This document shows positions 9,630 through 27,901 of a stretch of 32,000 nucleotides of DNA, piece by piece. Source of the stretch: Delftia acidovorans NBRC 14950. GTDB taxonomy: Bacteria > Pseudomonadota > Gammaproteobacteria > Burkholderiales > Burkholderiaceae_C. The first letter of the stretch is position 1; every line of letters starts with the position of its first letter. The notes under the pieces are model-generated. The model was not told where the DNA came from, ran no database searches, and saw only the letters and a list, made by a program, of their open reading frames with translations. Made by a program: the position numbers and the translations under genes. The stretch spans positions 60,001-92,000 of the forward strand of contig NZ_BCZP01000013.1 of the NCBI RefSeq assembly GCF_001598795.1, read 5' to 3'.

Positions 9630-9642
9630 GGGCCGCACAGGG

Positions 9643-11727: not shown

Positions 11728-11730
11728 GGC

Positions 11731-12465: not shown

Positions 12466-12543
12466 CTCGAAACCTCCGCCGCACGGCCCTGCCAAGGCAG
12501 AACCGGCGGCCAAGAAAAAAACGGGCTCAGGTGGCTCAGGGAT

Positions 12544-14250
12544 TCAGGGGTAGACCTGTCCTGACAGCATCTGCAGCTGCTCGACCACGGGCCCCAGGGC
12601 CAGCGAAGGCAGGAAGGTCAGCCCGCCGACCACGACCACCACGAAGACCAGCAGCCCCATGAACAGCGGCGTGGCCGTCGGGAAGGTGCCCGGCCCCGCA
12701 GGCACGGTGGGCTTGGCCGCCAGGCTGCCGGCCAGGGCCAGCATGGGCAGCAGCGTCAGATAGCGGCCCGCCAGCATGGCCAGGCCGATGGTGGTGTTGA
12801 AGAACGGCGTGTTCGCATTCAGGCCCGCAAAGGCCGAGCCGTTGTTGGCCGTGCCCGAGGCATAGGCATAGAGCACTTCCGAGAAGCCATGCGGCCCCCG
12901 GTTGGCCAGGCTGGCCAGTGTGTCGGGCCAGACCGCCGCCAGCGCCGTGAAGCCCAGGACGGAGATGGGGTGCGCCATCACGGCCAGCATCACCAGCTTG
13001 ATCTCGCGCGCCTCGATCTTCTTGCCCAGGAACTCGGGCGTGCGGCCAATCATCATGCCGGCCAGGAAGACCGTGAGGATGGCGTACTGCAGCAGGTTGA
13101 TCAGGCCCACGCCATCACCGCCGAACACGCAGTTGAGCATCATCTGTGCCAGCGGCACCAGCCCGCCCAGCGGCGTCAGCGAGTCATGCATGGCATTGAC
13201 CGATCCCGTGGTCGCGGCCGTGGTCGTGGCCACGAACAGCGCCGTATCGGCGATGCCGAAGCGCAGCTCCTTGCCCTCCATGTTGCCGCCCGGCTGGGTG
13301 GCACTGATCTGCTGGTCGGCACCTGCGGCCGTGAGCAGCGGATTGCCTGCCTGCTCGGCCGTGAACACCAGCGCCAGAAAGCCCACGAACATCACCAGGC
13401 AGGCGCCGAACAGCACCCAGCCCTGGCGGCGGCGCAGCAGCATGGAGCCGAAGGCATAGGTCATGGCCGAGGGAATCAGCAGCATGCCCAGGATGTGGAT
13501 GGCATTGGTCAGCGGCGTGGGGTTCTCGAACGGATGGGCCGCGTTCATGCCGAAGAAGCCGCCACCGTTGGTGCCGATGTGCTTGATGCTCTCCAGGCTG
13601 GCCACGGGGCCCAGCAGAATCTGCTGGCGCGCGCCCTCCAGCGTCGTCGCCCAGACCTGGCCATCCAGCGCCTGCGGCACGCCCTGCCACACATAGACCA
13701 GGGCCACCACAAAGCTCAGCGGCAGCATCACGCGCCACAGCACGCGCACATAGTCCACCCAGTAGTTGCCCAGGTCCGATGCACTGGAGCGCGCCAGGCC
13801 TCGAATGAAGCCCGCAGCCGCGACCACACCCGTGATAGCACCCGCAAACATCATGAAGGTAATGGCCACCATCTGCGTGGCGTTGGACAGGCTGCTCTCG
13901 CCCGAATACGCCTGCCAGTTGGTATTGGTCACAAAGGACGCGGCCGTGTTGAAGGCCAGATCCGGCGTCTGCGCCGCATTGCCCAGTGCATTCAGCGGCA
14001 GCCAGCCCTGCGCGCGCAGCAGCGCATAGCCCAGCAGCAGCATGGCGCCGTTGGACAGCAGCAGCGCCAGCCCGTAGCGCTGCCAGCCCATGCGCTCGGC
14101 GGGGTTCACGCCCAGGGCGCGAAAGCTCAGCCGCTCGATCCAGGCATGGTGCTCACTCGTGAAGCAGCGTGCCAGCCACTGCCCCATGGGCACGGCCAGC
14201 GCCGTCATCACCAGCAGCACCAGTGCATATTCCATCCAGGTCAACCACAT
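12544..14250 (-). CDS. kdpA: Potassium-transporting ATPase K+-channel-like subunit KdpA
   Basis: 568 aa with AAGGAGA upstream of the ATG at 14248-14250. The KdpA blocks are [61 protein letters not shown] and NNGSAFAGL. Confidence 0.97.
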
Positions 14251-14270
14251 GGCGGTCTCCTTTCAGGCAG

Positions 14271-14354
14271 TCAAATCCGGCCCAGCGCCGCCACGAAGGC
14301 CAGCAGGCCCCCGAAGCAGCCCAGGCTCAGGGCGATAAAGATCAGGTCTTGCAT
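14271..14354 (-). CDS. Unannotated 27-aa hydrophobic micro-ORF between kdpF and kdpA (single predicted TM helix)
   Basis: My manual reverse-complement translation gives MQDLIFIALSLGCFGGLLAFVAALGRI*. A GAGGTG Shine-Dalgarno overlaps the kdpF stop (TTC TGA GGTGG CGCAG ATG). The ORF ends 20 nt before the kdpA ATG. It is too short to appear in the supplied ORF track. Confidence 0.5.
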   Translation of the reverse strand: MQDLIFIALSLGCFGGLLAFVAALGRI

Positions 14355-14364
14355 CTGCGCCACC

Positions 14365-14463
14365 TCAGAACTGCTCGGGCCGCAGCAATGCGTATCCGAG
14401 GTAGACAAACAGAGCCAGAGCGCCCAAGGCGCCCAGCCATCCGGTGATTTCGGTCAGGGTCAT
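14365..14463 (-). CDS. kdpF: Potassium-transporting ATPase small subunit KdpF
   Basis: My manual translation gives MTLTEITGWLGALGALALFVYLGYALLRPEQF* (32 aa). The C-terminal YL.YALLRPE.F matches the KdpF signature (compare E. coli ...GYLVYALINAEAF). GGGAGA lies upstream of the ATG at 14461-14463. It is not in the ORF track because it is too short. Confidence 0.8.
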   Translation of the reverse strand: MTLTEITGWLGALGALALFVYLGYALLRPEQF

Positions 14464-14561
14464 AGGAATTTCTCCCGCATCGGCACCGCTTGGCGGCACC
14501 TGTTGTTGCGATGGGGAAAACTCTAGGGCCGGGGCTGTCAAAAGCGGATTGAGATTGCGGC

Positions 14562-14585
14562 ATGCCGTATCAAGACGGCATCAAG
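14562..14585. promoter_or_regulatory. Direct hexamer repeat at 11-bp spacing nested in a 7-bp inverted repeat, in the kdpF-divergent intergenic region (candidate OmpR-family/KdpE site)
   Basis: The plus strand reads ATGCCGT ATCAAG ACGGCAT CAAG. ATCAAG occurs at 14569-14574 and 14580-14585. ATGCCGT (14562-14568) is the reverse complement of ACGGCAT (14575-14581). The element is about 100-120 nt upstream of the kdpF ATG. Confidence 0.25.
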
Positions 14586-14595
14586 ATGTCCACCG

Positions 14596-16068
14596 ATGCC
14601 TCTTATCGAATGGTTCAGAACCCCGCCCTTCACGCTCTGCCATCCCACCCTTATGACCCCTGCACTCCCAGTGAAAAACACTTCCACGACAGGCCAGGCA
14701 ACCGATGGCAGGACTTTCCTTCGTTTCTGGGGTTTGCTCAGCCTCCTGTACCTGGGATGGCTGCTGATCTTCTGGCCCGGCGTGCTGGGCGAGGACAGTG
14801 CGGCCGTCCTCATGGAAGTGGACAACCCGGACAAATTCCGCTCCGGCAAGGGGGTGCTGTGGTACTACTTCATCCGCCTCACCTACGGCGCCACCCACTT
14901 GGTGGAAGTACCCATCATCGCGTTGATATTGCTGTGCGCCATGTTCTTCGCCCGCATGCTGGCCTGGTACTGGACCTCGCGGCACCGCGCGCTGTGCGTC
15001 TTTCTGCTGCTCTTCATCTGCGCGGCGCCGCACATGTTCTATTTCACAGGCACGCTGTACCCGGACGCCATCTTCGCCGTGGCTTCTTGCGCGCTGCTGT
15101 TCGAGCTCTGGCTGCTGTGCAGCCAGCGCCAGCACAGTCGGGCATCCCTGGCCGTGATTGCCCTTGCCTTGCCCTTCGCCGTGTTCGTGCGCGCCAACGG
15201 GATCGTTTTCCTGGCACCTGCCATGCTGGCCCTGTTTCTCGCCGACCGCCGCAGCCGCTGGTATCTCGGGACCATCATCGCGTTCTGGTGCGCCACGGTC
15301 TCTGCAGGAACCCAATTGCACAAATCGACCGCGCAAAGCGCCACGGATTCACTGGTCCTCTTCGAGACCGTCAAGCTGCTCCAGCCCAGGGCCATGAACG
15401 ATCTATGGCAAAAGCAGCCCCTCATGAACGACCCTTGGGTACTGCAGGAGCCCAAGCTTTCCGCGCGCACCCTGGAAATCCTCGACAGCTACCGCCCCCG
15501 GGAGCTGATGCTCACCTACTCGGACCCAGCCTACTGGGACATGCTGGTGTTCCATCCGTCAGGCCCCCAGCTCTTCGGGCTGCCCGAGGACCAGCGCAAG
15601 GAACTGGTGCAGGAATTCTTCCGCTACAACCTGTGGCACAACCTGCCGGACGTTGTGGCCAGCCGTGTGAACGTTTTTTTGGCTGCGGCGCTTGCGCAGG
15701 GTGGATTTCCTGCGCTCGACTATGCGCAATACGTCCTGAAGCGCACCCAGACACAGTCGCAGATGCGCCGGTTCGGGCTGGACCAGGCAGAACAGGCACT
15801 GCGCGCCGTGCACAGATATAGCTACGCTTGGCGGTGGCTGCTGTGGACACCTTGGCTGGGCATGGGCCTGCTGGCCTTGATGCTGTGGCGCAGTTGCCGC
15901 GGCAAGGACCTGCCAGCCCTGCTTGTGACAATTCCCCTGGCGTTGCAACTGGCAGGTATCACTGCATTCGCTTCGGCAGGCGAATATCGTTACTTACTGC
16001 TTTTCTTCACCATGCCGCTGGTACTCATTCCCATAATGATTTCGTCAGCGCACGAAAACAGGTCGTAA
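14596..16068 (+). CDS. Polytopic inner-membrane protein, family not recognised, possible GT-C-type glycosyltransferase (paralog A of 18893-20272)
   Basis: 490 aa from the ATG at 14596; the alternative ATG at 14653 gives 471 aa, and neither has a clear SD. About 8 N-terminal TM segments are followed by a ~170-aa hydrophilic region and 2-3 C-terminal TM segments. The first-loop acidic motif is FWPGVLGEDSAAVLMEVD. It shows clear collinear similarity to the ORF at 18893-20272. Confidence 0.6.
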   Translation: MPLIEWFRTPPFTLCHPTLMTPALPVKNTSTTGQATDGRTFLRFWGLLSLLYLGWLLIFWPGVLGEDSAAVLMEVDNPDKFRSGKGVLWYYFIRLTYGATHLVEVPIIALILLCAMFFARMLAWYWTSRHRALCVFLLLFICAAPHMFYFTGTLYPDAIFAVASCALLFELWLLCSQRQHSRASLAVIALALPFAVFVRANGIVFLAPAMLALFLADRRSRWYLGTIIAFWCATVSAGTQLHKSTAQSATDSLVLFETVKLLQPRAMNDLWQKQPLMNDPWVLQEPKLSARTLEILDSYRPRELMLTYSDPAYWDMLVFHPSGPQLFGLPEDQRKELVQEFFRYNLWHNLPDVVASRVNVFLAAALAQGGFPALDYAQYVLKRTQTQSQMRRFGLDQAEQALRAVHRYSYAWRWLLWTPWLGMGLLALMLWRSCRGKDLPALLVTIPLALQLAGITAFASAGEYRYLLLFFTMPLVLIPIMISSAHENRS

Positions 16069-16214
16069 CAGCCCCCAGGCGGCAGGTCAATGCATGGGCC
16101 AATCAGGGACATCGTGTAAAAGCCATCTTTTGCCCACGCTCTGTAAAATGCGCCGATTCGCCACGGGTGCCAGACACCCGTGCGCTCTCGACAGCCCATC
16201 TCCTGGATTCCCCC

Positions 16215-17843
16215 TTGACTTACGCCCTGGAAACCCGGCGCCGCCGGACTTTTGCCATCATTTCCCACCCCGACGCGGGCAAGACCACGCTGACCGAAAA
16301 GCTGCTGCTGTTCTCGGGCGCGATCCAGATCGCGGGCGCCGTCAAGGGCCGCAAGGCCAGCCGCCATGCCACCTCCGACTGGATGGAAATCGAAAAGCAG
16401 CGCGGCATCTCGGTGGCCAGCTCGGTCATGCAGATGAGCTACCGCGACCACGTGGTCAACCTGCTCGACACGCCCGGCCACAAGGACTTCTCGGAAGACA
16501 CCTACCGCGTGCTCACGGCCGTGGACTCGGCGCTGATGGTCATCGACGCCGCCAACGGCGTGGAATCGCAGACCCGCCGCCTGATCGAGGTCTGCCGCCA
16601 GCGCGACACGCCCATCATCACCTTCGTCAACAAGATGGACCGCGAAGTGCGCGATCCGCTGGACATCCTCGACGAAGTCGAGCGCGAACTGGGCATGCCC
16701 TGCTGCCCCGTCACCTGGCCTGTGGGCCAGGGCCGGCAGTTCGGCGGCATCATCAACCTGCTCACCCAGACCATGACGGTGTTCCAGCCCGGCAGCGAAC
16801 GCCGCCCGCAGGATTTCGAGGCCATCCCCCTGGCCGAGGCCGACAAGCTGCGCGCGCGCTTCGGCCGGTCCTTCGACGATGCGCTGGAAAGCATGGAACT
16901 GGCCCAGGGCGCCTCGGCCCCCTGGGACCACGAGGCCTTCCTGGCAGGCAAGCTCACACCGGTCTTCTTCGGCTCCGGCGTGAACAACTTCGGTGTCATG
17001 GAAGTGCTGGATGCAGTGGTGGACATGTCGCCCCCGCCCGGCCCCCGCAAAAGCTCGCTGCTGGTCAACAAACAGCCTGTGGAAAAGATCATCCAGCCCG
17101 AGGACGAAGGCTTCTCCGGCGTGGTCTTCAAGGTCCAGGCCAACATGGATGCCAACCACCGCGACCGCATCGCCTTCGTGCGCGTGGCCTCGGGCAAGTA
17201 CACGCCCGGCATGAAGATGAAGGTCCAGCGCACCGCCAAGGAGCTGCGCCCCACCTCCGTCGTAACCTTCATGAGCCAGCGCCGCGAAGCCGTGGAAGAA
17301 GCCTATGCGGGCGACATCATCGGCTTCACCACGCATGGCGGCGTTCAGCTGGGCGACACCATCACTGACGGCACCAACCTGCAATTCACGGGCCTGCCCT
17401 TCTTCGCCCCGGAAATGTTCATGACCGTGGTGCTCAAGAACCCGCTGCGCACCAAGCAGCTGCAGCAGGGCCTGATGCAGCTGGGCGAGGAAGGCGCCAT
17501 CCAGGTTTTCAAGCCCGAGGCTGGCGGCAACATGCTGCTGGGCGCCGTGGGCCAGCTGCAATTCGAAGTCGTCCAGCACCGCCTGAACGCCGAATACGAC
17601 TGCGACATCCGCCTGGAAGGCTGCCAGTACACCGGCGCCCGCTGGATCACGGCCGACACCCCGGCCGAACTGCGCGAATTCGAGAACGCCTACCCGCTGC
17701 GCATGGCGCGCGATGCGGCCGATACGCTGGCCTATCTGTGCACGTCACCCTATGACGTGCGATTGGCGCAGGAGCGGTTTCCGAAGATCCATTTCCATCC
17801 GCTGCGCGAGCATGCGGGGTTGGCGTTGCAATCCGGAAACTGA
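16215..17843 (+). CDS. prfC: Peptide chain release factor 3 (GTPase)
   Basis: It is collinear with E. coli PrfC as recalled: RRRTFAIISHPDAGKTTLTEKLLLF, SDWMEIEKQRGISV, LLDTPGHKDFSEDTYR, FVNKMDR...HPLREH. There is no in-frame ATG upstream of the conserved N-terminus. The TTG at 16215 would give MTYALETRRRRTF, so the start codon is uncertain. Confidence 0.93.
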   Translation: MTYALETRRRRTFAIISHPDAGKTTLTEKLLLFSGAIQIAGAVKGRKASRHATSDWMEIEKQRGISVASSVMQMSYRDHVVNLLDTPGHKDFSEDTYRVLTAVDSALMVIDAANGVESQTRRLIEVCRQRDTPIITFVNKMDREVRDPLDILDEVERELGMPCCPVTWPVGQGRQFGGIINLLTQTMTVFQPGSERRPQDFEAIPLAEADKLRARFGRSFDDALESMELAQGASAPWDHEAFLAGKLTPVFFGSGVNNFGVMEVLDAVVDMSPPPGPRKSSLLVNKQPVEKIIQPEDEGFSGVVFKVQANMDANHRDRIAFVRVASGKYTPGMKMKVQRTAKELRPTSVVTFMSQRREAVEEAYAGDIIGFTTHGGVQLGDTITDGTNLQFTGLPFFAPEMFMTVVLKNPLRTKQLQQGLMQLGEEGAIQVFKPEAGGNMLLGAVGQLQFEVVQHRLNAEYDCDIRLEGCQYTGARWITADTPAELREFENAYPLRMARDAADTLAYLCTSPYDVRLAQERFPKIHFHPLREHAGLALQSGN

Positions 17844-17855
17844 CCATCGACAGGC

Positions 17856-18884
17856 ATGAACTCAAGCACCCGCAGCCTTCCCCGCCCGGTTTCCCACACC
17901 AACAATTTCGATGCCATTCGAATTGTGGCGGCCCTCGCGGTTCTCGTCAGCCACCACCATGCCCTCATAGGCCAATTCGAACCATTGGTACTGGGCATAC
18001 ATTCGCTGGGCGGCTTTGCAGTGCTTGTGTTTTTCGTGGTCAGCGGCTATCTGGTGACCTGCAGCTGGAACAATGATCCGCATCTCATACGCTTTGCCCT
18101 GAGGCGTGCCCTGCGCATCTGGCCAGCGCTTATTGCCGTTGTCGTTCTGACCGCTTACGGGCTGGGCGTCTGGCTGACAACCCTTCCCCCTGAGGACTAT
18201 TTGCGCGACAGTGCAACGTCCGGCTATTTGTCCAATATATGGATGCATGGCAAAGCTGGACTTCCAGGACTTTTCGAAAACAATCCGCTCAAAGGAGCGG
18301 CCAATGGATCAATATGGACGATTCCCTATGAGGTGCAATGCTATGTGATCCTGGCGTGCGCTGGATTGATGGGCGCCTTGCGCATTCGTACCGTCTGGCT
18401 CCTGATGGTACTGGTGACAGCCATATGGTATCAAATCAAATACGGACCGGATTTTCACGCTGACTGGAAATTGAAGCGCGAAATGATGGTTTATTTTATC
18501 CTGGGCTCTGCAATCGCTGTGCTTCAGCCGTACTGGAGCAAACGGTCACTGCTTTGGCTTGCCGTATTGACGGCAGCAGGATTGTGCGCCTGGTTTTTTG
18601 GACTGCGCTATCTTTCACTGATGATAGCACTCCCTTATATTCTGATATATATTGGAATAAAATCAACCCCCATATTGCGACAATTCGGTCGATGGGGTGA
18701 TCCATCCTACGGGCTGTATCTGATTGCCTTCCCCACTCAGCAGACCATTATTCATTTTTTCTGGCCTACCATCGGTTCGGCCGGGGTTCTTGTATTTTCC
18801 GTCGCTATCACCACCGCTCTGGCATATGCTTCGTGGCATTGCATAGAAAAGAGAGCGCTGAAGATCAAGCCTCGCAAACCATAG
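17856..18884 (+). CDS. Acyltransferase family 3 (OafA/YrhL-type) integral-membrane O-acyltransferase, AT3 domain only
   Basis: 342 aa. The N-terminal motif NNFDAIRIVAALAVLVSHH matches the AT3 FD.LR...A...V...H signature. It has about 10 hydrophobic segments and no C-terminal SGNH domain. It starts 12 nt after the prfC stop and has markedly lower GC than its flanks. Confidence 0.85.
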   Translation: MNSSTRSLPRPVSHTNNFDAIRIVAALAVLVSHHHALIGQFEPLVLGIHSLGGFAVLVFFVVSGYLVTCSWNNDPHLIRFALRRALRIWPALIAVVVLTAYGLGVWLTTLPPEDYLRDSATSGYLSNIWMHGKAGLPGLFENNPLKGAANGSIWTIPYEVQCYVILACAGLMGALRIRTVWLLMVLVTAIWYQIKYGPDFHADWKLKREMMVYFILGSAIAVLQPYWSKRSLLWLAVLTAAGLCAWFFGLRYLSLMIALPYILIYIGIKSTPILRQFGRWGDPSYGLYLIAFPTQQTIIHFFWPTIGSAGVLVFSVAITTALAYASWHCIEKRALKIKPRKP

Positions 18885-18892
18885 GCCCAAAC

Positions 18893-20272
18893 ATGCTCGC
18901 AAGTCCACAACGAAGATTCATATTTCTATTGGCCTTTCTCAGCACCATCTATATATTGTGGCTGCTGGCGTTCTGGCCAGGCGTTCTGGGTCAAGACAGT
19001 CTCGCAATCATGCTCGAGGTGGAAACTGACCGGGTTGCACAGGCTGGCAAACCTGCATTCTGGTACCTCTACAATCTCTTGCTGTATGGCCCTTGGAGAC
19101 TGGTGGAGGTCCCCATACTCATACAAATCTGCGTCAGCACGATTGTGAGCGCCCGCATACTCAGCTGGATGCTGGGTGAACGCCTCTACAAGAGCTTCTG
19201 GTATTGCCTCTTCTTTGTTGCACTGGCCCCCAGCGTCCTTTATTACTCTATCGCGCTTTATTCGGATGGAATCTATGCCATGGCCATGATGGGCATGCTG
19301 TTCGAGATATGGCTTTGCCACCGCGCCAGGCGCATTGATGCCATCGCTTGCTGGATGTTGGCTTTTACCATTCCCTTTGCATTGTTCGCCCGCCCCAACG
19401 GATTCATCAACGCAATTGCCTTGGTCGCACTATTTTTCGCCTTGCCTCGGCTTCATCGGTGGAGGCTGCTGGCTGTCACATTGCCCTGGTGTGCCATAGC
19501 GATATTTGCCAATTCTCAATACAAATACCACACACCGATCGGCAGTATCTTCCCGCTCGCTCTTTATGAAACAGTGGGATTCATGGAGCATCGCCCCATG
19601 GGATTGTGGGAATACAACAAACCCCGCATATCTACGAAGTCGGTCGAGGCACTTACATCCACAGGTAAATCTCTGGATCACATCATAAAATTTCACGATC
19701 ACTATTACTGGGATCCTCTCATTTTCAGTGACGCCGGCCCGGCACTTCTGCACCTCCCCAAGCAAGCAAAGAAGACAATTGTCAAAGAGTTCTTCAAGTA
19801 CAACCTTTGGCACAACTTTCCTGCTTTCATGGCAAGTAGAGTTAATATTTTTCTCTACGCATCATTGGCCAATGGAGGCCTTCCACCCCCTGAGGCAGGG
19901 CAATATATTCTGTCCCAAACAAAAACAGAATCATCCGTATTGTTCCGTGAACTTCTTCCACACCGAGTTCTCATGCCTTGGTACAATTTTGCCCTGGAAT
20001 ACAGGGCCATATTCTGGGCTCCATGGCTGGGAATATTCCTGATCATTGCAACCACCGCGAAGGCATGGCGGTACCGTGATCGCGGCAGCCTCATCGTGTG
20101 CAGCATCTTCATACTCCAATTGGCAGCCGTGTTCTTTTTCTCCATCGCTGGAGAATACAGATATCTCCTTTCATTTTTTACGGCGCCCCTCGTACTCCTA
20201 CCCATTTTTTCTCAACGATCACCGAAGATACCAGGCAATTCCAACCATCCTCGGGAACATATAGGAACATAG
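18893..20272 (+). CDS. Polytopic inner-membrane protein, family not recognised, possible GT-C-type glycosyltransferase (paralog B of 14596-16068)
   Basis: 459 aa from the ATG at 18893, which lies 8 nt after the acyltransferase TAG. The track ORF starting at 18833 overlaps that gene. The shared blocks with paralog A are FWPGVLGQDSLAIMLEVE, LVEVPIL, FFKYNLWHNFPAFMASRVNIF and AGEYRYLLSFFTAPLVLLPI. GC is low. Confidence 0.6.
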   Translation: MLASPQRRFIFLLAFLSTIYILWLLAFWPGVLGQDSLAIMLEVETDRVAQAGKPAFWYLYNLLLYGPWRLVEVPILIQICVSTIVSARILSWMLGERLYKSFWYCLFFVALAPSVLYYSIALYSDGIYAMAMMGMLFEIWLCHRARRIDAIACWMLAFTIPFALFARPNGFINAIALVALFFALPRLHRWRLLAVTLPWCAIAIFANSQYKYHTPIGSIFPLALYETVGFMEHRPMGLWEYNKPRISTKSVEALTSTGKSLDHIIKFHDHYYWDPLIFSDAGPALLHLPKQAKKTIVKEFFKYNLWHNFPAFMASRVNIFLYASLANGGLPPPEAGQYILSQTKTESSVLFRELLPHRVLMPWYNFALEYRAIFWAPWLGIFLIIATTAKAWRYRDRGSLIVCSIFILQLAAVFFFSIAGEYRYLLSFFTAPLVLLPIFSQRSPKIPGNSNHPREHIGT

Positions 20273-20397
20273 TAAAAATAATATCCGCGGCAAAGGATGC
20301 ATGCATCATCGAATAAAACGATGAATCTTCTCTTGTCCGCCACCAGTGCCACGCAAAAAAATCAAAAGACAAAGCCTGAAATATCGTCCTCATAGTT

Positions 20398-22395
20398 ATG
20401 CAGCGCAAATTCGGATTCTATTTTTCAGCTCTGTGGCTGGCTTTCATTCTGGTGGCGGCGACCAAGCGTCTCATCCGCTTCTTCCCTTTACCAGGTGACC
20501 AACTCAACGGCGATGCGTACTGGACTTACCTCCCGAATGCGCGAAAGTTGCTTGAGCAGCCTTGGAATTTCCTGACCACGGACCCCTCCAGCTACTACGT
20601 TGCCCCACTGGGCTACGTCTGGGCCGCTGTATGGGGCGCCGACCACGCGCGCGTAGAACTGGCCAATTGCGTACTCTTTCTTGCCTGCGTGCTGATGATG
20701 TGGCGTTGCGCCTCGCGGCTGGGGGGACTGTGGGCCGGGGTGGTAGCGACCAGCCTGCTTGTGGGTTACCCCTCGCTGACGTCCTTCATCCCGCAGGTGC
20801 TGACCGAAACGATCTACCTCTTCGGCCTGATGCTGTGCATGACGGCTGGCATTGAATACGCGCTGGGAGGGCGGCGGCCTCGCCTGCTGCTGGGCCTGTT
20901 CGCCCTCGGCCTCACCATCACCCTGCTGTCACGCCCTGTTCTGCAGATCTTCACACTGGCAGCCCTGATCGCTGCACTGGTGCTGACCGCATACGCCACA
21001 TGGCGTGGCCCGGCGCTCGGCAACACCCTGCGTTGTCTGTCACGCGTCATTGATCGCCGCCTCTGCGTGGCCCTGCTGGCCGCAATCCTGCTGCCCGCTG
21101 CCGTCATCATCAAGAACGGAACGTGCTTTGGCGTCTGGGGGCTGGGCACAGGAGCTGGTTCAGGGCTGCTCTATGGCGTGAGCCCCTCCAAGATGGGACT
21201 GGAACCCATCTACTCGGGCTTTGGCTATGACGCCTCACTTGTCCCGCAGGTGGCCTCCAACATGACCACAGTCAACCCGCTTGCCTACGAGTCGGACAGC
21301 ATCAATGCACGTGTGGGCCTGGGAATCATAAAGAGCACCTCGCTGGCGGACAACGCCGTGTTCTTCGCCCACAAAATCAAGGCTTGGCTGATCTACAGCA
21401 CGCCCGAACTTCAGTTCCTGCGCAAACTGCGCGCTTTGCGGGTCTTCGAGTGGCTTGCCATCGGCTTTGCCGCCATCTCGCTTGCCCTCCAGGCGCGGCG
21501 ACGCCCCAAGGGCGAACGCCTGCGGCTGCCCGGCCCTTCAGGTCGTGAGCCGGAACGGCTCACCATCCTGCTGACACTGCTCGTGCTGGTGCTGGCCATG
21601 GCGGCGCAACTGGCGCCTGTGCTCTACAACACGCGCTACAACCTGTTTTTCCTGGAGCCCTGGCTGATGCTGCTGTGCGGTGTGGCATGCGCCATCCTCC
21701 TGCAAAAACCTGCCGCGCTGGCCACATCCTCCGGCTCTGCGGCCAGGGGTCTGCGCCAGCTGGCGCAATGGCTGCCGCGCAAGGTGGCCATCGTGCTGGT
21801 GCTCGCACTGCTGCCGCCTGCGCTCGCACGCTACGCGGCCCGTCACGAAACCTGGGGCATGGACCCGTATCGGCCCGGCCCTGTGGAGATGGCACTGGAC
21901 CGCACCGCCATGGGCGCCCTTCAGTCCCAGGATGCCACGGACCTCGGCGAGGGCCGGTGGAAGCTGACCACCAGCCCGGCCTCCCTGGTCATACCGCTGG
22001 AAATCAAGGAGCCCGGCATCCTTTCCCCGCATCGCACCATGGATGCCATCTGGCGAGCGCGCTTCGCCATTGAGCTGCAGGGAGAAGAAGCCCGCACCTG
22101 CCGCAAAGCCGTCGTACAGGTCTCCAACGCCTATCAGTCGAACGACTGGTATGAGCCCGATACCGCCCTGCGGCTGCGCCCCGATGGGAAAGCCCACACC
22201 TACGCCCTCCACGGAAACGACCATCTTCGCCCGGCAGGACCAGGCAAGCTGATCATTACCTTCCACTGCCCCAAGGACACCGTAATCACCTGGTCTGGCG
22301 CGGAACTGCTAAGGTCCACGCTTCCCGAGGCGGCACGGGCCCTGGTTCAGCACGGCGTGCCCATCGACCCCTATTACCGCAACGAACCTCGCTGA
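20398..22395 (+). CDS. ArnT/PMT_2-like GT-C glycosyltransferase (GT39/GT83-type) with ~200-aa C-terminal soluble domain
   Basis: 665 aa. The first ~460 aa contain many TM segments. The first-loop motif PLPGDQLNGDAYWTY is followed by APLGYVWAAVW, resembling the acidic-loop and PPL.YW blocks of ArnT/PMT_2 proteins (recalled, not searched). Residues ~465-665 are hydrophilic and beta-rich in appearance. Confidence 0.65.
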   Translation: MQRKFGFYFSALWLAFILVAATKRLIRFFPLPGDQLNGDAYWTYLPNARKLLEQPWNFLTTDPSSYYVAPLGYVWAAVWGADHARVELANCVLFLACVLMMWRCASRLGGLWAGVVATSLLVGYPSLTSFIPQVLTETIYLFGLMLCMTAGIEYALGGRRPRLLLGLFALGLTITLLSRPVLQIFTLAALIAALVLTAYATWRGPALGNTLRCLSRVIDRRLCVALLAAILLPAAVIIKNGTCFGVWGLGTGAGSGLLYGVSPSKMGLEPIYSGFGYDASLVPQVASNMTTVNPLAYESDSINARVGLGIIKSTSLADNAVFFAHKIKAWLIYSTPELQFLRKLRALRVFEWLAIGFAAISLALQARRRPKGERLRLPGPSGREPERLTILLTLLVLVLAMAAQLAPVLYNTRYNLFFLEPWLMLLCGVACAILLQKPAALATSSGSAARGLRQLAQWLPRKVAIVLVLALLPPALARYAARHETWGMDPYRPGPVEMALDRTAMGALQSQDATDLGEGRWKLTTSPASLVIPLEIKEPGILSPHRTMDAIWRARFAIELQGEEARTCRKAVVQVSNAYQSNDWYEPDTALRLRPDGKAHTYALHGNDHLRPAGPGKLIITFHCPKDTVITWSGAELLRSTLPEAARALVQHGVPIDPYYRNEPR

Positions 22396-22416
22396 CGCCC
22401 CCTTCGAATCCACGAC

Positions 22417-22767
22417 ATGACTCCGTTTCTCACCAGCATCACCATCCTGTGCGTCCTGGGCATCTCGCTCGGACAGATGCTTTTCAAGAAAGCCGCGCTG
22501 TCCATACCCGAGGCTGCCACCTGGCAGCACTGGGTCTTCAACGGCTGGCTCATTACCGCTCTGGCCCTCTACGGCATTACCACCCTGGTATGGATCTGGG
22601 TGCTGCGGCACGCGCCGCTGCATCTGGCCTACCCCTTCATGGGACTGGCCTTCGTGATCGTTCCCTGCCTGGGGTGGCTGTTCCTGAACGAACCCATCCG
22701 CATTCCCACGCTGGTGGGCGGCGCCCTCATCCTTGCCGGAATCACAATTACCGCCCACGCATCCTGA
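22417..22767 (+). CDS. Small 4-TM EamA/SMR-like protein resembling ArnE/ArnF undecaprenyl-phosphate-sugar flippase subunits
   Basis: 116 aa. SLGQMLFKKAA, APLHLAYPFMGLAFVIVPC and FLNEPIRIPTLVGGALILAGITI parallel the E. coli ArnE blocks AGQLCQKQA, VPVGIAYPMLSLNFVWVTL and [23 protein letters not shown], as recalled. It ends 5 nt before the GT2 gene. Confidence 0.65.
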   Translation: MTPFLTSITILCVLGISLGQMLFKKAALSIPEAATWQHWVFNGWLITALALYGITTLVWIWVLRHAPLHLAYPFMGLAFVIVPCLGWLFLNEPIRIPTLVGGALILAGITITAHAS

Positions 22768-22772
22768 GACCC

Positions 22773-23750
22773 ATGTCCACTCCCATGCGCATCGCCGTCG
22801 CCATCCCCTGCTACAAGGTCACCCAGCATGTGCTCGGTGTCATCAACGCCATCGGCCCCGAAGTCGAGGCCATCTATGCCGTGGACGACGCCTGCCCTGC
22901 CGGCAGCGGACGCTTCATCGAGGAGAACAACACGGACCCACGCGTGCGCGTGCTCTACAACCCCGAGAACCGGGGCGTGGGCGGCGCCATCGTCACGGCC
23001 TACAAGGCGGCGATTGCCGACGGCATGGACATCGTGGTGAAGATCGATGGCGACGGCCAGATGGACCCCTCGCTGCTGCCGCTGTTCGTGCGACCCCTGC
23101 TGCGCCACCAGGCCGACTACACCAAGGGCAACCGCTTCTACCGGCCTGAGTCGGTACAGGACATGCCTCCGGTACGCCTGTTCGGCAATGCCGTGCTGTC
23201 CTTCATGACCAAGCTCAGCTGCGGCTACTGGAACGTGATGGACCCGACCAATGGCTATACGGCCGTACGCACCTGCGTGCTGGCCGAGCTGCCGCTGGAC
23301 AAGCTGGAAAATCGCTACTTCTTCGAGACCGACATGCTGTTCCGCCTGAACACCGTGCGCGCCGTCGTCAAGGACGTGCCCATGGATTCGGTCTATGCCG
23401 ATGAGGAGTCCAACCTCAAGATCGGCAAGGTGCTGCCCGAATTCCTGCGCAAGCACGCCTCGCGCCTGTGGCGACGCTATGTCTACAACTACCTGGTGCG
23501 CGACTTCAACGTGGGCACGCTCTACAGCCTGAGCGGTGTCATGCTTGTGCTGCTGGGCACCTTCTTCGGCCTCTGGCGCTGGATCGTCAGCAACAGCACC
23601 AGCCATCCTGCCACCAGCGGAACCGTCATGCTGGCGGCGCTGCCCATCATCATCGGCATCCAGTGCCTGATCGCCTTTCTGCACTACGACGTGAGCAGCG
23701 TGCCCACCGAGCCGGTCAGCCTGTCCCTCGAAGACGAAGCCGTCGCCTGA
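22773..23750 (+). CDS. Family-2 glycosyltransferase with two C-terminal TM helices (polyprenyl-phosphate sugar synthase type, ArnC/GtrB/DPM1-like)
   Basis: 325 aa from the ATG at 22773. The GT-A core is IAVAIPCYKV...YAVDDACP...NRGVGGA...VKIDGDGQMDP. The C-terminal hydrophobic segments are LYSLSGVMLVLLGTFFGLW and VMLAALPIIIGIQCLIAFL. Confidence 0.8.
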   Translation: MSTPMRIAVAIPCYKVTQHVLGVINAIGPEVEAIYAVDDACPAGSGRFIEENNTDPRVRVLYNPENRGVGGAIVTAYKAAIADGMDIVVKIDGDGQMDPSLLPLFVRPLLRHQADYTKGNRFYRPESVQDMPPVRLFGNAVLSFMTKLSCGYWNVMDPTNGYTAVRTCVLAELPLDKLENRYFFETDMLFRLNTVRAVVKDVPMDSVYADEESNLKIGKVLPEFLRKHASRLWRRYVYNYLVRDFNVGTLYSLSGVMLVLLGTFFGLWRWIVSNSTSHPATSGTVMLAALPIIIGIQCLIAFLHYDVSSVPTEPVSLSLEDEAVA

Positions 23751-23801
23751 CCGCGCCGTCTTCGCGGCCTGCCACATCCAGTCCTGTCCACCAGCCCATC
23801 C

Positions 23802-25676
23802 ATGCCCCACCTGCCTAGCACCTTCCACCTTCCATACGCATCCACGCTGATCGCCGCAGGCCTTGCCCTGGCATCCATGGCAGCCCATGCACAGACAGGT
23901 TCTGGTGCCACGCGCGGCCAGCCCCTGGTCATCGCGCCCACGGTGGAAGGCATGCTCCTGTGCGATGAAGCCGTTGCAGACACCAGGATCAAGTCCATGG
24001 ACGAGGCCTATGCCTTCTGCCAGCAGCGCAAGCTGGACGGCTCCGCTGCCGTCAACCGCCTGCTGGACACGCTGGAGCCGGGCGGCCCCAAGGGCAACGT
24101 GCAGATCGGCTACACCGCCACGCTGCAATTGCTGGGGCTGTACCAGCGCACGGCCAAGGGCTGGGAAATCGACGAAGCCAAGGTGGACAGCTTCCTGAAC
24201 GTTATCCGCAAGGTGCAGCGTCCGGTCGTGCTGTATTTCTCGGCAGACCATTTCGACTCGGTCGGCCCCATTGCCGCCGAGCTGGCCAAGGACCCCGTTA
24301 ACCTGATGCAGCTGAAAGACGGCAAGCCCCTGGAACTGGGCTATTTCGGCTACCGCATCCTGCCCTACACGCTCTCGACGGATGCTTCGGTTCCCGTCAA
24401 TCACTACCGCTTCAAGGCCCTCGAATACATGGCCAGGAAGATCCGGGAGCTGCCCCAGCCCGTACAGGACCGCATCATTGCCTACACCCTGCCCGGTGAA
24501 CTGCACCACATGTTCCCGGACTTCGAGAACGGCATGGGCGCCTATAAGGACATCCGCGTCACCGACTACAGCCCAGGCTCGGTAGCAGGCTTTCGCCAAT
24601 GGCTGCAGACCAAATACAAAGGCATAGCGCAGTTCAAGGCGCAGACCGGGCTGGACTACGCATCGTTCGATGCGATTCCTGCCCCATCCAAGGACATACG
24701 CAAGGAAAAGCTCAACGGCTTCGGTGAACACTACGACGCATTCGCCGACGGCACACTACCCGTGGGCGGCTGGCTGTGGGACCCAAAGCAGGCAATCGAG
24801 CGCCTGGATCTCTATCTGGACGGCAAGCTGGTAGGGCCCATGGCCCGCGGCCTCAACCGGCTGGACGTCTACCGCGCCGTGGACAACATAACCAGCCCCA
24901 ACACCGGGTTCCGCTACAACCTCGACTTCAGCAACCTGTCCGCCGGACAGCACATCGTCCAGGTCGTGGCCGAGTCCAAGGGCCGCAAATACCAGTTGGC
25001 CAATGCCAACTTCGTTGTCGTTCCGCGCAATCAGGGCAAGATCGTCAACATGTACCCCCGGCGGCTCGGCTGGATGCCGCCCACGTCCATACTGGAAAAG
25101 CAGGGCGTGCGGTCGTGGCTCGACATGCCGGCGCAACTGCAGGACGTCTACTACAACCCCTTGGCCCGCGACTGGAACCACTACCGCGAATCGCAGGTGT
25201 ATGCACAGCTTGCGGTGTTCCACGAACGCGCCATTGCCGCCGGCCTGCCCGCAGCCAAGCTCTACTCCCACCAAATCATTCCCGATGTGAATCCCTCCTG
25301 GAATCCGCAGTTGTTCGCCTCCACCCAGACCCTGGATGGAAAGGCACCTTGGAAGCAGGGCCTGAACATGTATGGCGGCGCCACCAACAGCGACTGGCTG
25401 CGCGGTTTCATGAAGCAGCACCAGATCGGCAGCGGCTACGGCGCGCCCGAGTTCAATCCGCAGCAATGGAAACTTGACGGAACGCACTTGGCCGCGCTGA
25501 AGGCCCACTATGACGCAGGCGCCACCTTCATCAGCCCCTACTACTTCTCGGTGATCAACCAGCGCTTCAAGGGCGCAGCCGAACACGGCGTCAACCGCAT
25601 GGAGCTGTCCCCAGACAACCCCAAGGACGGCTCCGACAAGTTCTACAAGGCCATCGTCGAATTCGCCAGGCAGTAG
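23802..25676 (+). CDS. Secreted/periplasmic 624-aa protein of unknown family; glycoside-hydrolase-like (GH42-type DYSP...FR.WL..KY motif) with an internal Ig-like segment
   Basis: The signal-like N-terminus is STLIAAGLALASMAAHA-QT. The motif VTDYSPGSVAGFRQWLQTKYKGIAQFKAQTG resembles the DYSP..A.FR.WL...Y...L block of GH42-type TIM-barrel enzymes. The segment LDLYLDGKLVGP...SAGQHIVQVVAESKGRKYQLANANFVVV looks like a beta-sandwich insertion. A strong terminator follows the gene. Confidence 0.55.
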   Translation: MPHLPSTFHLPYASTLIAAGLALASMAAHAQTGSGATRGQPLVIAPTVEGMLLCDEAVADTRIKSMDEAYAFCQQRKLDGSAAVNRLLDTLEPGGPKGNVQIGYTATLQLLGLYQRTAKGWEIDEAKVDSFLNVIRKVQRPVVLYFSADHFDSVGPIAAELAKDPVNLMQLKDGKPLELGYFGYRILPYTLSTDASVPVNHYRFKALEYMARKIRELPQPVQDRIIAYTLPGELHHMFPDFENGMGAYKDIRVTDYSPGSVAGFRQWLQTKYKGIAQFKAQTGLDYASFDAIPAPSKDIRKEKLNGFGEHYDAFADGTLPVGGWLWDPKQAIERLDLYLDGKLVGPMARGLNRLDVYRAVDNITSPNTGFRYNLDFSNLSAGQHIVQVVAESKGRKYQLANANFVVVPRNQGKIVNMYPRRLGWMPPTSILEKQGVRSWLDMPAQLQDVYYNPLARDWNHYRESQVYAQLAVFHERAIAAGLPAAKLYSHQIIPDVNPSWNPQLFASTQTLDGKAPWKQGLNMYGGATNSDWLRGFMKQHQIGSGYGAPEFNPQQWKLDGTHLAALKAHYDAGATFISPYYFSVINQRFKGAAEHGVNRMELSPDNPKDGSDKFYKAIVEFARQ

Positions 25677-25686
25677 GATGGAGCCC

Positions 25687-25748
25687 TTGCGCGCACGGTC
25701 CGTGCGCGCAAACGCTGCCCTTTTACAAGCCGCCCTGGGCGGCTTTTT
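25687..25748 (+). terminator. Tandem hairpins, the second a rho-independent terminator, after the 624-aa gene
   Basis: Hairpin 1 is TTGCGCGCAC GGTCC GTGCGCGCAA (25687-25711). Hairpin 2 is AAGCCGC CCTGG GCGGCTT (25727-25745), running into the T-run TTTTT (25744-25748). Confidence 0.7.
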
Positions 25749-25753
25749 GCATT

Positions 25754-26560
25754 TTGACGACCGTGCCTACAACCCTCCAGCCGCTGTCCCTCTGGACACC
25801 TCCCGCATCGCCGCTCGGCATCCTTACCGACATCGACGACACCCTGACCACCGAGGGCGTGGTGCCGGCCCATGTCGTCGATGCCATCGCCCGGCTCAAG
25901 CAGTCCGGCCTGCGCGTGGTGCCGATCACGGGCAGGCCCGTGGGCTGGAGCGAGCCCTTTGCCCAGGCCTGGCCCGTGGATGCCATCGTGGCCGAGAACG
26001 GCGCCGTGGCACTGCGGCGCAATGCGCAGGGCGGGCTGGACAAGCTCTACCAGCAGGACGAGGCCACGCGCACCGCCAACTACGCGCGCATGCAGCAGGT
26101 GCTGGCCGAGATCGAGGCCACCGTGCCCGGGGCGCTGCGCGCCACCGACTCGGCGGGCCGCGAATGCGACATTGCCGTGGACCACAGCGAATTCACCCAG
26201 ATGCCCCAGCAGGACATTGACCGCTGCGTGGCCATCATGAAGGCGGCGGGCATGAACGCCACCGTCAGCTCCATCCACATCAACGGCTGGTTCGGTGCGC
26301 ACAACAAGCTCGAAGGCGCGCGCTGGATCCTGCGCACCCTGTTCGACATCGACCTCGACGCCACGCTGGACCGCTGGATCTACATCGGCGACTCCACCAA
26401 CGACCAGCTCATGTTCGAGCACATGCCCCACAGCCTGGGCGTGGCCAACATCGCGCGCTTCGTGCCCCAGCTCAAGCACCTGCCTCGCCATGTCACCCAG
26501 GCCGAGCGTGGAGACGGCTTTGCCGAAATGGCGCAGTACCTGCTGACCCAGCGCCCCTGA
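25754..26560 (+). CDS. HAD-superfamily hydrolase, subfamily IIB (sugar-phosphate phosphatase-like)
   Basis: Motif I is ILTDIDDTLT, motif II is VVPITGRP, and motif III/IV is YIGDSTNDQLMF. The cap region between motifs II and III is typical of HAD-IIB. The start is uncertain: TTG at 25754 or GTG at 25763, with no ATG and no clear SD. Confidence 0.8.
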   Translation: MTTVPTTLQPLSLWTPPASPLGILTDIDDTLTTEGVVPAHVVDAIARLKQSGLRVVPITGRPVGWSEPFAQAWPVDAIVAENGAVALRRNAQGGLDKLYQQDEATRTANYARMQQVLAEIEATVPGALRATDSAGRECDIAVDHSEFTQMPQQDIDRCVAIMKAAGMNATVSSIHINGWFGAHNKLEGARWILRTLFDIDLDATLDRWIYIGDSTNDQLMFEHMPHSLGVANIARFVPQLKHLPRHVTQAERGDGFAEMAQYLLTQRP

Positions 26561-26740
26561 TCCACAGGGCCGAGGGCCGGTGCAGCCCTTGCAGGCCTGC
26601 GCCTTCGCCTTCGACTACCCCATCGGCCCGTCCTGATCTGCGGGACCCGCGCTCCCCCCGCAGACACCATCACCCTCAGCACAGCCAACCGCCCGGCGCA
26701 GGCGGGCTGCGCACCCTCTTTCCCCCATTCGACAGAGCAA

Positions 26741-26760
26741 ATCTAGGACTATTCCTAGAT
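26741..26760. promoter_or_regulatory. Perfect 8-bp inverted repeat with 4-bp spacer (ATCTAGGA ctat TCCTAGAT) at the edge of the AT-rich fimbrial upstream region
   Basis: I read it directly from the sequence. A related half-site, CCTAGAAT, recurs at 26811-26818. It lies about 440 nt upstream of the fimbrial major-subunit ATG. This geometry is typical of a dimeric DNA-binding protein operator. Confidence 0.3.
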
Positions 26761-27200
26761 CAAGCATCAATTATCAGAATGCGCCCTATTTCATATAGTG
26801 GCGGTGCACACCTAGAATCCATCACATACCCAAAGAACAGGTTTTTGTTTCGCCTTTTTCTTTGACAGATTCTCTCCTGCATCCCATCCGCGCCATTGGG
26901 CACTGGTGTATTTGAACAATTCAACTTCAAACATGCCAGAGAAACAAACCTCGCCCATCCCTCGCCAACGCTCCCTCATCCGAACAATTTCTCCATGTCA
27001 GCGCCACCACCTATTCCAGCATGATCGCACCCCCTGCAAATCCTTGACCATGCTGACAGTTACCAACCATTGGATTGATGAGGTGAACATGGAACACTGA
27101 TGATTTATTAACCACTCAACCATTCACACACTCTCTTATTCCATCAGCGCATTCATCGCTGCTGGAATTTTATTTATCTCTTCAACTCGAGGGAATACCC

Positions 27201-27788
27201 ATGAAAAAGATCGCATTGCTGACATCGGTTGCCGGCCTGGTCATGATGGCCATGAACACCGCTCAAGCAGCAGACGGCACCATCAACTTCACGGGCGAGG
27301 TGGTCACCACCACCTGCAAGGTGGACACCACGGTCGCCGGCGCCGCCAAGGACGGCGTGAAGCTGCCCAACGTGGCGAACAACCAGCTGGCCACCGTGGG
27401 TGCCACGGTCGGCCGCCAGGCGTTCTCGCTGGAACTCAGCGGCTGTGAGCTGGCCACCGCCACCTCCACAGCGCCCGTCTCCAAGGTCGCCGTGTTCTTC
27501 GAAGCCGGCCCCAACGTGGACCTGGTCACCGGCATGCTCAAGCCCGCAGCGGCCAGCGGTACTGGTGCGCCCACCGTGGCCTCCGGTGTCCAGATCGCCA
27601 TCGTGGATCCCAGCAACAACGAGCGCCTAAAGATCGGTTCCGCCCAATCGCGCTTTGTGGACATCGACAACAAGGTCGGTGGCAATGGCCGGGCCATCAT
27701 GCGTTTCGCCTCCGAATACGTGGCCACCGGCCCCGTGACCGCAGGCCGTACCGACACCTCGGTGACCTACTCGCTGGTCTATCAGTAA
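27201..27788 (+). CDS. Type 1 (chaperone-usher) fimbrial major subunit
   Basis: 195 aa. The signal peptide is MKKIALLTSVAGLVMMAMNTAQA. The mature N-terminus ADGTINFTGEVVTTTCKV and the Cys pair (TTC...SGCEL) are typical of the FimA family, as is the C-terminal beta-strand ending YSLVYQ. Confidence 0.9.
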   Translation: MKKIALLTSVAGLVMMAMNTAQAADGTINFTGEVVTTTCKVDTTVAGAAKDGVKLPNVANNQLATVGATVGRQAFSLELSGCELATATSTAPVSKVAVFFEAGPNVDLVTGMLKPAAASGTGAPTVASGVQIAIVDPSNNERLKIGSAQSRFVDIDNKVGGNGRAIMRFASEYVATGPVTAGRTDTSVTYSLVYQ

Positions 27789-27801
27789 TCACTGACTTTC
27801 A

Positions 27802-27835: not shown

Positions 27836-27901
27836 GTGTCTTCTGCTTTCTTGACATGGGCCCGGCCCCATTCTTTCGCTCAAAACCCAGAGAGTTCTCC
27901 G

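Follow-up and report, generated by a model that had tools for sequence, protein, structure and literature searches.

A hypervariable Delftia locus encoding a candidate lipid-carrier-dependent system for periplasmic glycosylation and O-acylation of an envelope glycan

The decoration of O-polysaccharides in the periplasm by three-component systems is established (PMC11127046) and represents a known route to surface-antigen diversity after polymerisation. The gtrABC modules for O-antigen glucosylation, carried by Shigella and Salmonella phages and frequently accompanied by the acyltransferase 3 (AT3) acetylase Oac, combine a family 2 glycosyltransferase (GT2) that acts as undecaprenyl-phosphate-sugar synthase and carries C-terminal transmembrane (TM) helices, a small flippase with four TM helices, and a serotype-specific, polytopic glycosyltransferase of the GT-C fold. 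In the arnC/arnE-arnF/arnT system, which adds aminoarabinose to lipid A, and in the Bordetella lgm locus, a GT2 donor synthase works alongside a flippase of the SMR type and a GT-C enzyme of the PMT_2/ArnT kind, whose C-terminal domain is periplasmic. The Rgt system of Rhizobium and Mesorhizobium, to which rgtA-C also belong, is conserved and adds galacturonic acid to lipid A and core. Its single bactoprenyl-phosphate sugar synthase supplies several GT-C enzymes that act at different sites (rgtE with rgtD/rgtF; PMC7663294). Finally, in the GT136 pentofuranose systems, such as that of Citrobacter youngae O1, and in the Klebsiella O-antigen galactose modification, a GT-C enzyme uses a lipid-linked monosaccharide for periplasmic, post-polymerisation decoration that extends to O-polysaccharides exported by ABC transporters (PMC11127046). 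Here we analyse a locus of comparable composition in Delftia, contained in a window of 32,000 nucleotides (nt), which is the whole stretch of DNA under study and corresponds to positions 60,001-92,000 of contig NZ_BCZP01000013.1; coordinates below are window positions unless another locus is named.

A first-pass annotation made from the sequence alone had proposed a run of eight open reading frames (ORFs) on the + strand, each of which we found exactly where it had been placed. They encode, in order, a polytopic protein of 490 amino acids (aa), hereafter F490, the release factor PrfC, an AT3 acyltransferase, a second F490-like protein (F459), a larger polytopic protein (G665), a small membrane protein (S116), a GT2, and a secreted glycosidase-like protein (H624). 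The same gene order is found in D. tsuruhatensis NBRC 16741 (L006), and the G665 and H624 proteins are 94-99% identical to proteins of the D. tsuruhatensis group, to which we assign the window. That annotation had read the run as a lipid-carrier-dependent glycan-modification system, and every part of this reading open to examination in silico held. We consider it probable that the locus encodes a three-component, lipid-carrier-dependent system for extracytoplasmic glycosylation and O-acylation that decorates an envelope polysaccharide, most likely of the O-antigen type; the enzymatic steps, donor sugar and acceptor proposed below are drawn from folds, family relations, gene linkage, gene fusions and mosaic structure. 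As three-component periplasmic glycosylation is already known, the Delftia locus is not a new kind of system.

The locus shares with gtrABC the three types of component, strain variability and the combination with AT3 O-acylation, but it is chromosomal, with no flanking phage genes and no phage homologue of F459, its flippase candidate belongs to the SMR/EamA type and not to the GtrA family (PF04138), its three candidate GT-C genes come from two unrelated families, and its variable block includes a periplasmic glycoside hydrolase (GH)-like enzyme. Likewise, it resembles Arn and Lgm in its GT2, SMR-type flippase and PMT_2/ArnT-like protein with a probably periplasmic C-terminal domain, but it possesses a single flippase gene, is hypervariable, encodes a GT2 that matches dolichol-phosphate mannose synthase rather than ArnC and a G665 protein that fails the Pfam and NCBIfam models, and carries no tailoring genes of the arnA/arnB/arnD type, whose absence, already remarked upon, extends to the entire window and to its collinear relatives. 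With Rgt it has in common one donor synthase for several GT-C enzymes, but Rgt lacks an AT3 or GH partner. The GT136 systems also rely on a GT-C enzyme and a lipid-linked monosaccharide, but use a phosphoribosyltransferase plus phosphatase as donor synthase, a MATE-family flippase and other GT-C families.

Predicted components of the glycosylation and O-acylation pathway

The GT2 gene (22773-23750, + strand; 325 aa) encodes a predicted polyprenyl-phosphate glycosyltransferase that matches Glycos_transf_2 (PF00535, E 2.4e-15) as well as AglJ and PpgS, and carries, as the first-pass annotation had it, two C-terminal TM helices (residues 247-265 and 285-303 by hydropathy). Among solved structures it matches a single one, the dolichol-phosphate mannose synthase of Pyrococcus (5mlz, E 3.3e-10); a search of the PDB at E up to 5 retrieved neither ArnC nor GtrB. 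Anchored at the cytoplasmic face of the membrane, this enzyme would transfer a hexose or N-acetylhexosamine from a nucleotide sugar to undecaprenyl phosphate. The S116 gene (22417-22767, + strand; 116 aa) ends 5 nt upstream of the GT2 gene. Its product, previously described as ArnE/F-like, indeed has four TM helices and reaches the cut-off of EamA (28.5 bits), and its matches to ArnE (E 1e-10) and ArnF (E 2.5e-9) fall below the curated cut-offs. By sequence, S116 is a candidate flippase which, probably as a dimer, would move the undecaprenyl-phosphate-linked sugar to the periplasmic leaflet.

G665 (20398-22395, + strand; 665 aa) is a PMT_2/ArnT-like GT-C candidate with about 10-11 TM helices and a soluble C-terminal domain (approximately residues 478-665). 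The likeness to ArnT/PMT_2 claimed for it is borne out by its homologues but not by G665 itself, which matches no Pfam or NCBIfam model. PMT_2 is matched by 16 of 45 homologues, and one homologue is annotated as an ArnT-family protein. In addition, a 616-aa protein occupying the F459 slot in the related locus L004 passes Pfam PMT_2 (33.1 bits for a cut-off of 26.1), and G665 aligns with it from end to end (24% identity, E 1e-22). Assignment to ArnT/GT83 proper failed, as the threshold of the family hidden Markov model (HMM) was not reached and the G665 family profile matched no ArnT sequence in the PDB. Within the family, an aspartate after the first TM helix (D39) is invariant, and two cysteines of the C-terminal domain (C568 and C624) are nearly so; since such a cysteine pair fits the periplasm, this domain is probably periplasmic.

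F490 (14596-16068, + strand) and F459 (18893-20272, + strand; 459 aa), correctly recognised from the outset as paralogs (38% identical across 449 residues, E 4e-98), form an unclassified family of polytopic proteins of predicted GT-C fold and are candidate periplasmic glycosyltransferases. The AlphaFold2 model of F490, built from an alignment of 42 homologues (predicted local distance difference test score, pLDDT, 90.9), shows a first TM helix followed by two short helices bearing the invariant D67 and S68, and then a TM bundle with a helical extramembrane region; D157 is also invariant. In a Foldseek search against the PDB, the six best matches were all GT-C enzymes, including ArnT (probability 0.98), AftB (1.00), ALG3, AglB and DPY19, and lower down came Emb, ALG9/12, STT3, Pmt4 and PglB amid very-low-probability matches to G-protein-coupled receptors and transporters. 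We considered for F490 and F459 a transporter or Wzy-type polymerase fold, which the first-pass annotation had named as the contrary outcome, and rejected it on the model and its Foldseek matches: the top folds are GT-C, the nearest flippase is WzxE with a probability of 0.04, and Wzy is not among the matches. Weak matches to GT22 (14 members) and DUF2142 (9 members), which we take to be Pfam families of the GT-C clan, occur among the 42 members of the family. GT-C enzymes are expected to combine the fold with an acidic residue conserved in their first periplasmic loop, and both families have such a residue (D67 in F490, whose fold scores are weak, and D39 in G665). A profile-profile comparison detected no relation between the two families (probability 1%). 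The F490 family has so far been seen in Comamonadaceae only, and the F490 gene itself is absent from D. acidovorans and from locus L007. G665, F459 and F490 may all use the same lipid-linked donor, each adding the sugar to the acceptor glycan at a distinct position or in a distinct linkage.

The AT3 gene (17856-18884, + strand; 342 aa) encodes an Acyl_transf_3 membrane O-acyltransferase of the Oac type, without an SGNH domain (PF01757, 85.7 bits for a cut-off of 31, E 4e-24, residues 17-326; at least seven hydrophobic segments). Its relatives include acyltransferases encoded by temperate Burkholderia phages (35-37% identity), and it further matches proteins of Shigella/Lederbergvirus phages, the group that includes the O-antigen acetylase Oac of Sf6. 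This enzyme would O-acylate the same glycan that the GT-C proteins glycosylate. Natural gene fusions connect AT3 with G665, and F459 with G665. AT3::G665 fusions comprise P0187, whose AT3 part is 52% identical to that of the window, and five further proteins of about 1,000 aa, and F459::G665 fusions comprise P0161 and a 1,167-aa ORF of loci L002 and L003 (F459 parts 63% and 89% identical, respectively). In L002 (14310-17813), from a closely related Delftia genome, this ORF joins F459 to a divergent G665 allele (63% identical), and the fusion is present in two independent assemblies; the corresponding spacer in the window measures 125 nt, with 45% GC and a weak hairpin. Such Rosetta-stone fusions place AT3, F459 and G665 in one pathway and suggest that they form a physical unit, probably one complex.

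A hypervariable site between prfC and the HAD gene

An H624 profile scan of a single genome from each species yielded 77 distinct loci, in which we mapped twelve families using iterated HMMs; co-occurrence within 10 kb was counted in the 50 species loci with enough flanking sequence. Nearly all 77 loci come from records titled Comamonadaceae or unclassified Burkholderiales/Burkholderiaceae. One of them, titled Sphingomonas sp. NCPPB 2930 (L026), is a Comamonadaceae-type locus with a prfC 98.7-99.3% identical to that of Xylophilus and is probably mislabelled. The frame of the loci is prfC … H624-HAD, in which the interval from prfC to H624 ranges from near-nothing (L063, L070, L022, L073) to about 7 kb; HAD follows H624 in 28 of the 50 loci. 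The prfC…HAD interval shows more than 45 architectures among the 77 species loci. Within 10 kb of H624, a GT2 gene occurs in 33 of the 50 loci, a GT-C gene in 28 (DUF7657 being counted as a GT-C candidate without a fold test), a flippase gene in 25 and an AT3 gene in 24, and 12 loci have none of them. The expected co-occurrence of GT2, flippase and GT-C was found in 23 of the 50. S116 stands directly before GT2 in 28 of the 77 loci, and the order F490-S116-GT2 is kept in 12. The flippase may be of the SMR/EamA or, in other genera, the GtrA type; the large membrane protein may be F490, G665, a member of one of two PMT-like families, or DUF7657/DUF7654; and the AT3 genes number from zero to three per locus. 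In two loci without a GT-C gene (L033, 9932-17268; L039, 2964-8094), H624 is followed by three consecutive AT3 genes, which in L033 precede a second, inverted copy of H624. At least two GT-C genes accompany a single GT2 gene in half of the loci with GT-C (14 of 28), and one donor for several transferases therefore appears to be a common design. This idea, already put forward in the first-pass annotation, has its precedent in rgtE with rgtD/rgtF (PMC7663294). The prfC…HAD interval is, in sum, a hypervariable site across Comamonadaceae, where parts swap and the logic is constant.

This variability reaches down to the level of closely related strains. AT3, F459 and the spacer beyond them coincide with a low-GC island (17850-20500), with a GC content of 0.45-0.57 (about 0.50) against 0.61-0.68 (about 0.64) in the flanks and a third-codon-position GC content of 0.57-0.58 against 0.77-0.91. 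AT3 and F459 are a separately acquired low-GC cassette, replaced in sister strains: L002 and L004, with 97% identical flanks, carry in the same slot either the F459::G665 fusion (L002) or a PMT_2 gene plus G665 (L004). A phage origin of this cassette is unsupported, F459 having no match in phage genomes, although AT3 has phage relatives.

The comparison with D. acidovorans outlines the exchanged region. KdpA, PrfC and HAD are 96-99% identical, PrfC and HAD being at 98.5%, whereas H624 (77%), GT2 (68%) and S116 (63%) have diverged, and the D. acidovorans cassette consists of DUF7657, a different S116/GT2 pair and AT3, with no F490. Nucleotide identity to the D. acidovorans locus L082 is 0.6-0.8 over 23850-~25350 and then jumps to 0.97-1.0. 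Because this right-hand breakpoint (~25350) lies inside the 3' end of H624, most of this gene belongs to the exchanged block. The prfC gene (16215-17843, + strand; NCBIfam prfC, 812 bits), for which we chose the start giving the 542-aa product called in the 92%-identical genome CP109857, is a housekeeping gene and conserved anchor, 97-99% identical between Delftia species that have replaced sequence on both of its sides, and is a conserved bystander in the variable region, not a component of the system. The right flank is formed by a conserved HAD-IIB phosphatase gene (25754-26560, + strand; TIGR01484, 81.7 bits), 98.5-99.6% identical between Delftia species. The stretch bounded by kdpF and the 3' end of H624, prfC excepted, is a recombination-prone, strain-specific allele, which probably makes the glycan structure under its control a variable surface antigen. 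Accordingly, the eight-gene run first described consists of real ORFs but is not a fixed unit; it is one allele of a hypervariable locus.

Neighbouring genes of the run are 5-51 nt apart, with two wider gaps ahead of prfC (146 nt) and of the G665 gene (125 nt). The strong terminator announced after the last gene corresponds to the best terminator-like hairpin of the + strand (25727-25745; stem of 8 bp with 6 G-C pairs and a T-rich tail), located just 3' of H624, and weaker hairpins also lie inside the run, including one at 20306-20324. Overall, terminator-like sites show no enrichment (15 observed for 10 +/- 3.7 expected), and an Rfam search of 13500-27500 retrieved no regulatory RNA.

H624 and the probable acceptor

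H624 (23802-25676, + strand; 624 aa), annotated early on as a secreted GH-like protein, has a signal peptide, no TM helix in the mature protein and a triosephosphate isomerase-barrel fold. Its model (pLDDT 87.8) is a GH35/GH42-like (beta/alpha)8 barrel for which Foldseek retrieved the GH35 beta-1,2-glucosyltransferase IaSGT (7vky; E 1.9e-6, TM-score 0.45), beta-amylase (GH14) and GH42 enzymes; with IaSGT/GH42 it shares a motif after strand 4 (profile E 2.4e-5) at a sequence identity of 9-10%. The Pfam Glyco_hydro_42 score of H624 stays below the gathering score (12.9 bits for 21), with homologues at 17-21 bits. Across the 95 full-length members, some of which are paralogs with no more than 30-40% identity, G232, E233, H235, D255, D441, H490, Q491 and C54 are invariant, E550 is kept in 94 and C73 in 93. 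E233 follows a strand (225-230), and E550 lies within 'PEFNPQQW', which resembles the GH35 nucleophile motif. From the model, E233 is a candidate acid/base and E550 a candidate nucleophile, both assigned by inference and not by residue superposition; the profile of the C-terminal part retrieved from the PDB only a weak match to GH128 (E ~0.05), and the nucleophile assignment accordingly stays provisional. Enzymes of clan GH-A usually have Asn-Glu at the acid/base position, and the invariant Gly232 preceding the candidate glutamate of H624 may point to an unusual substrate (a 2-substituted sugar) or an unusual chemistry. Like IaSGT, which uses E176/E343 (PMC8861115), and the GH42 beta-galactosidases, H624 combines the barrel with two glutamates conserved as catalytic candidates, but it differs from the cytosolic IaSGT by its signal peptide, by Gly-Glu in place of Asn-Glu, and by the insertion of a Big_7-type immunoglobulin domain (residues ~305-406, window 24714-25019). 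The same Big_7-type domain is repeated 5-9 times in tandem in unrelated proteins 544-3,788 aa long, and those scanned carry RCC1 or subtilase domains. Named members of the H624 family belong to Comamonadaceae only. As a retaining-type glycosidase or transglycosylase, H624 would trim or remodel in the periplasm the same glycan that the membrane enzymes decorate.

Paralogs of H624 also provide an indication about the acceptor. In seven loci without prfC (L028, L029, L030, L041, L045, L047, L061), they directly adjoin a gene for a 1,076-1,437-aa enzyme combining methyltransferase, GT2 and GT4 domains; four of the seven also have wzm (ABC2_membrane) together with a wzt gene encoding a Wzt_C domain, accompanied in three of these four by a TPR-methyltransferase, and L061 has an additional WecA-type gene (PF00953). 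The methyltransferase/glycosyltransferase enzyme together with wzm/wzt is a signature of ABC-transporter-dependent O-polysaccharide assembly. Moreover, three tandem H624 paralogs reside in the wzm/wzt clusters of the Rhodoferax-type loci L028 (1854-7469), L041 (8166-13527) and L045 (8058-13507), 30-57% identical to the H624 of the window and all retaining E233 and E550. The linkage of H624 to wzm/wzt, the phage-related AT3 and the established periplasmic decoration of O-polysaccharides (PMC11127046) together make an O-antigen-type acceptor the most likely. The first-pass annotation had held that the acceptor could not be deduced; the context in other genera narrows it to an O-polysaccharide-type glycan, and in Delftia the support is indirect.

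Alternative readings and biological significance

Several observations weigh against a single system decorating an O-antigen-type glycan. The structural resemblance of F490 to GT-C enzymes is weak by its scores (best E 0.011, TM-score ~0.3), and neither the F490 nor the G665 family profile matches any sequence of the PDB. F490, located across prfC and the 146-nt gap from the other genes, may have its own expression and act independently of them. H624, for its part, is no obligate partner: it stands alone among housekeeping genes (pyruvate dehydrogenase, RlmJ, Dus) in 12 of the 50 loci, where its neighbours give no functional hint. Conversely, AT3::G665-flippase-GT2 cassettes exist at prfC without H624 in L086 and L087. 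With Gly-Glu instead of Asn-Glu in H624, ordinary hydrolase chemistry is not assured. The O-antigen link is drawn from other genera, of the Rhodoferax type, the Delftia O-antigen cluster lying outside the window, and our literature search, which covered ArnT, Wzt clusters containing glycoside hydrolases, and the glycans of Delftia or Acidovorax, returned no biochemical or genetic data on these genes. As for the two H624-less cassettes, the L086 gene in the H624 slot was examined as a possible homologue and rejected, since it encodes an S41 peptidase unrelated to H624, and L087, a metagenome-assembled genome titled Hyphomicrobiales, shows Acidovorax-type synteny (MFS, prfC … TctC, PQQ) and is probably mislabelled or mis-binned.

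The stand-alone H624 genes and the H624-less cassettes would be expected if a decoration island had merely inserted near H624 and HAD, with H624 an unrelated glycosidase serving, for example, nutrient or periplasmic-glucan turnover, and F490 independent; the loci L063, L070 and L022, with nothing between prfC and H624-HAD, fit this explanation too. We nevertheless regard it as unlikely. H624 is found beside GT2, GT-C and AT3 genes also where prfC is absent (L059, L060, L047), as well as with O-polysaccharide clusters, only 51 nt and no terminator separate it from GT2, and between Delftia species it mostly diverges with the cassette, whereas HAD, 80 nt downstream, is 98-99% identical.

A different acceptor was also considered. 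Modification of lipid A or core in the manner of Arn, Lgm or Rgt, by which G665 (with the F490 paralogs) would transfer the undecaprenyl-phosphate-linked sugar to lipid A phosphates or core sugars and alter surface charge and cationic-peptide resistance, would agree with the PMT_2 matches and the ArnT-annotated homologue of the G665 family, with the proximity of S116 to ArnE/ArnF, and with the Rgt precedent of a single donor synthase for several lipid A transferases. We give it little credence: allele replacement within species and the low-GC cassette are more in keeping with a variable antigen than with a conserved lipid A site, Oac-type AT3 domains are fused to G665 homologues, H624 is linked to wzm/wzt clusters, the GT2 retrieves dolichol-phosphate mannose synthase and not ArnC or GtrB, and arnA/B/D-like genes are missing from the window. 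It is comparably improbable that the GT-C proteins elongate or branch a separate polymer from undecaprenyl-phosphate-monosaccharide, as in mycobacterial lipomannan, with H624 as its processing glycosidase or transglycosylase. The 14 loci with several GT-C genes and a single GT2 could be explained in this way, as could the resemblance of GT2 to dolichol-phosphate mannose synthase, the weak matches of F490 members to an Alg9-like mannosyltransferase family and the adjoining conserved periplasmic GH-like protein, the catalytic candidates of which are all kept in its paralogs; but many loci have one GT-C gene or none beside H624, the cassette content is too variable for a backbone synthase, and no anchor-priming enzyme or export gene occurs in the window.

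O-glycosylation by the PMT-like GT-C proteins of Ser/Thr residues in secreted proteins (H624 or the downstream fimbriae), as in actinobacterial Ppm1/PMT, is very improbable despite family members matching Pfam PMT and PMT_2, the dolichol-phosphate mannose synthase-like GT2, the adjacent conserved secreted protein and the nearby fimbrial genes, as the AT3 enzymes and their fusions point to carbohydrate acceptors, the invariant residues of H624 (E233, E550, H490, Q491) are enzyme-like, and H624 occurs in wzm/wzt clusters. Fimbriae were likewise rejected as acceptor, the fimbrial operon adjoining the locus only in Delftia. This chaperone-usher operon (fimbrial subunit, PapD-like chaperone and usher; 27201-32000) begins about 640 nt after HAD. 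On the opposite side, upstream of F490, the window contains a kdp operon on the - strand (~5206-14463) whose order, as read from Pfam labels in L002, which is collinear and 92% identical, is kdpF-kdpA-kdpC-kdpB, a Gcw_chp gene (PF09694; ~8692-9567) and kdpD-kdpE, so that KdpC is ahead of KdpB and an extra gene lies inside the operon.

For the lipid-carrier-dependent decoration of an O-antigen-type glycan, what the Delftia locus adds to the described systems is its spread in Comamonadaceae, two GT-C families captured by no curated model, natural AT3::GT-C and GT-C::GT-C fusions, which argue for acylation and glycosylation as one membrane machine, and a conserved chromosomal site with within-species exchange of whole cassettes. 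Most notable is H624, a family of glycosidase-like periplasmic proteins that accompany both decoration cassettes and wzm/wzt O-polysaccharide clusters, an association for which we found no precedent in the literature searched. As a tentative proposal, which we hold with less confidence than the decoration system itself, H624 could found a new family of glycoside hydrolases or transglycosylases, known to date from Comamonadaceae alone, that act in the periplasm at an unrecognised step of O-polysaccharide maturation (trimming, chain-length editing or transfer), with a specificity that co-diversifies with the GT-C and AT3 enzymes; the prfC-HAD site could then act, next to the O-antigen cluster proper, as a second determinant of serotype. 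Among the strains of Delftia and Acidovorax are opportunists, plant pathogens and mosquito symbionts, and a strain-variable determinant of their surface glycans would bear on phage host range, serotyping and host recognition.

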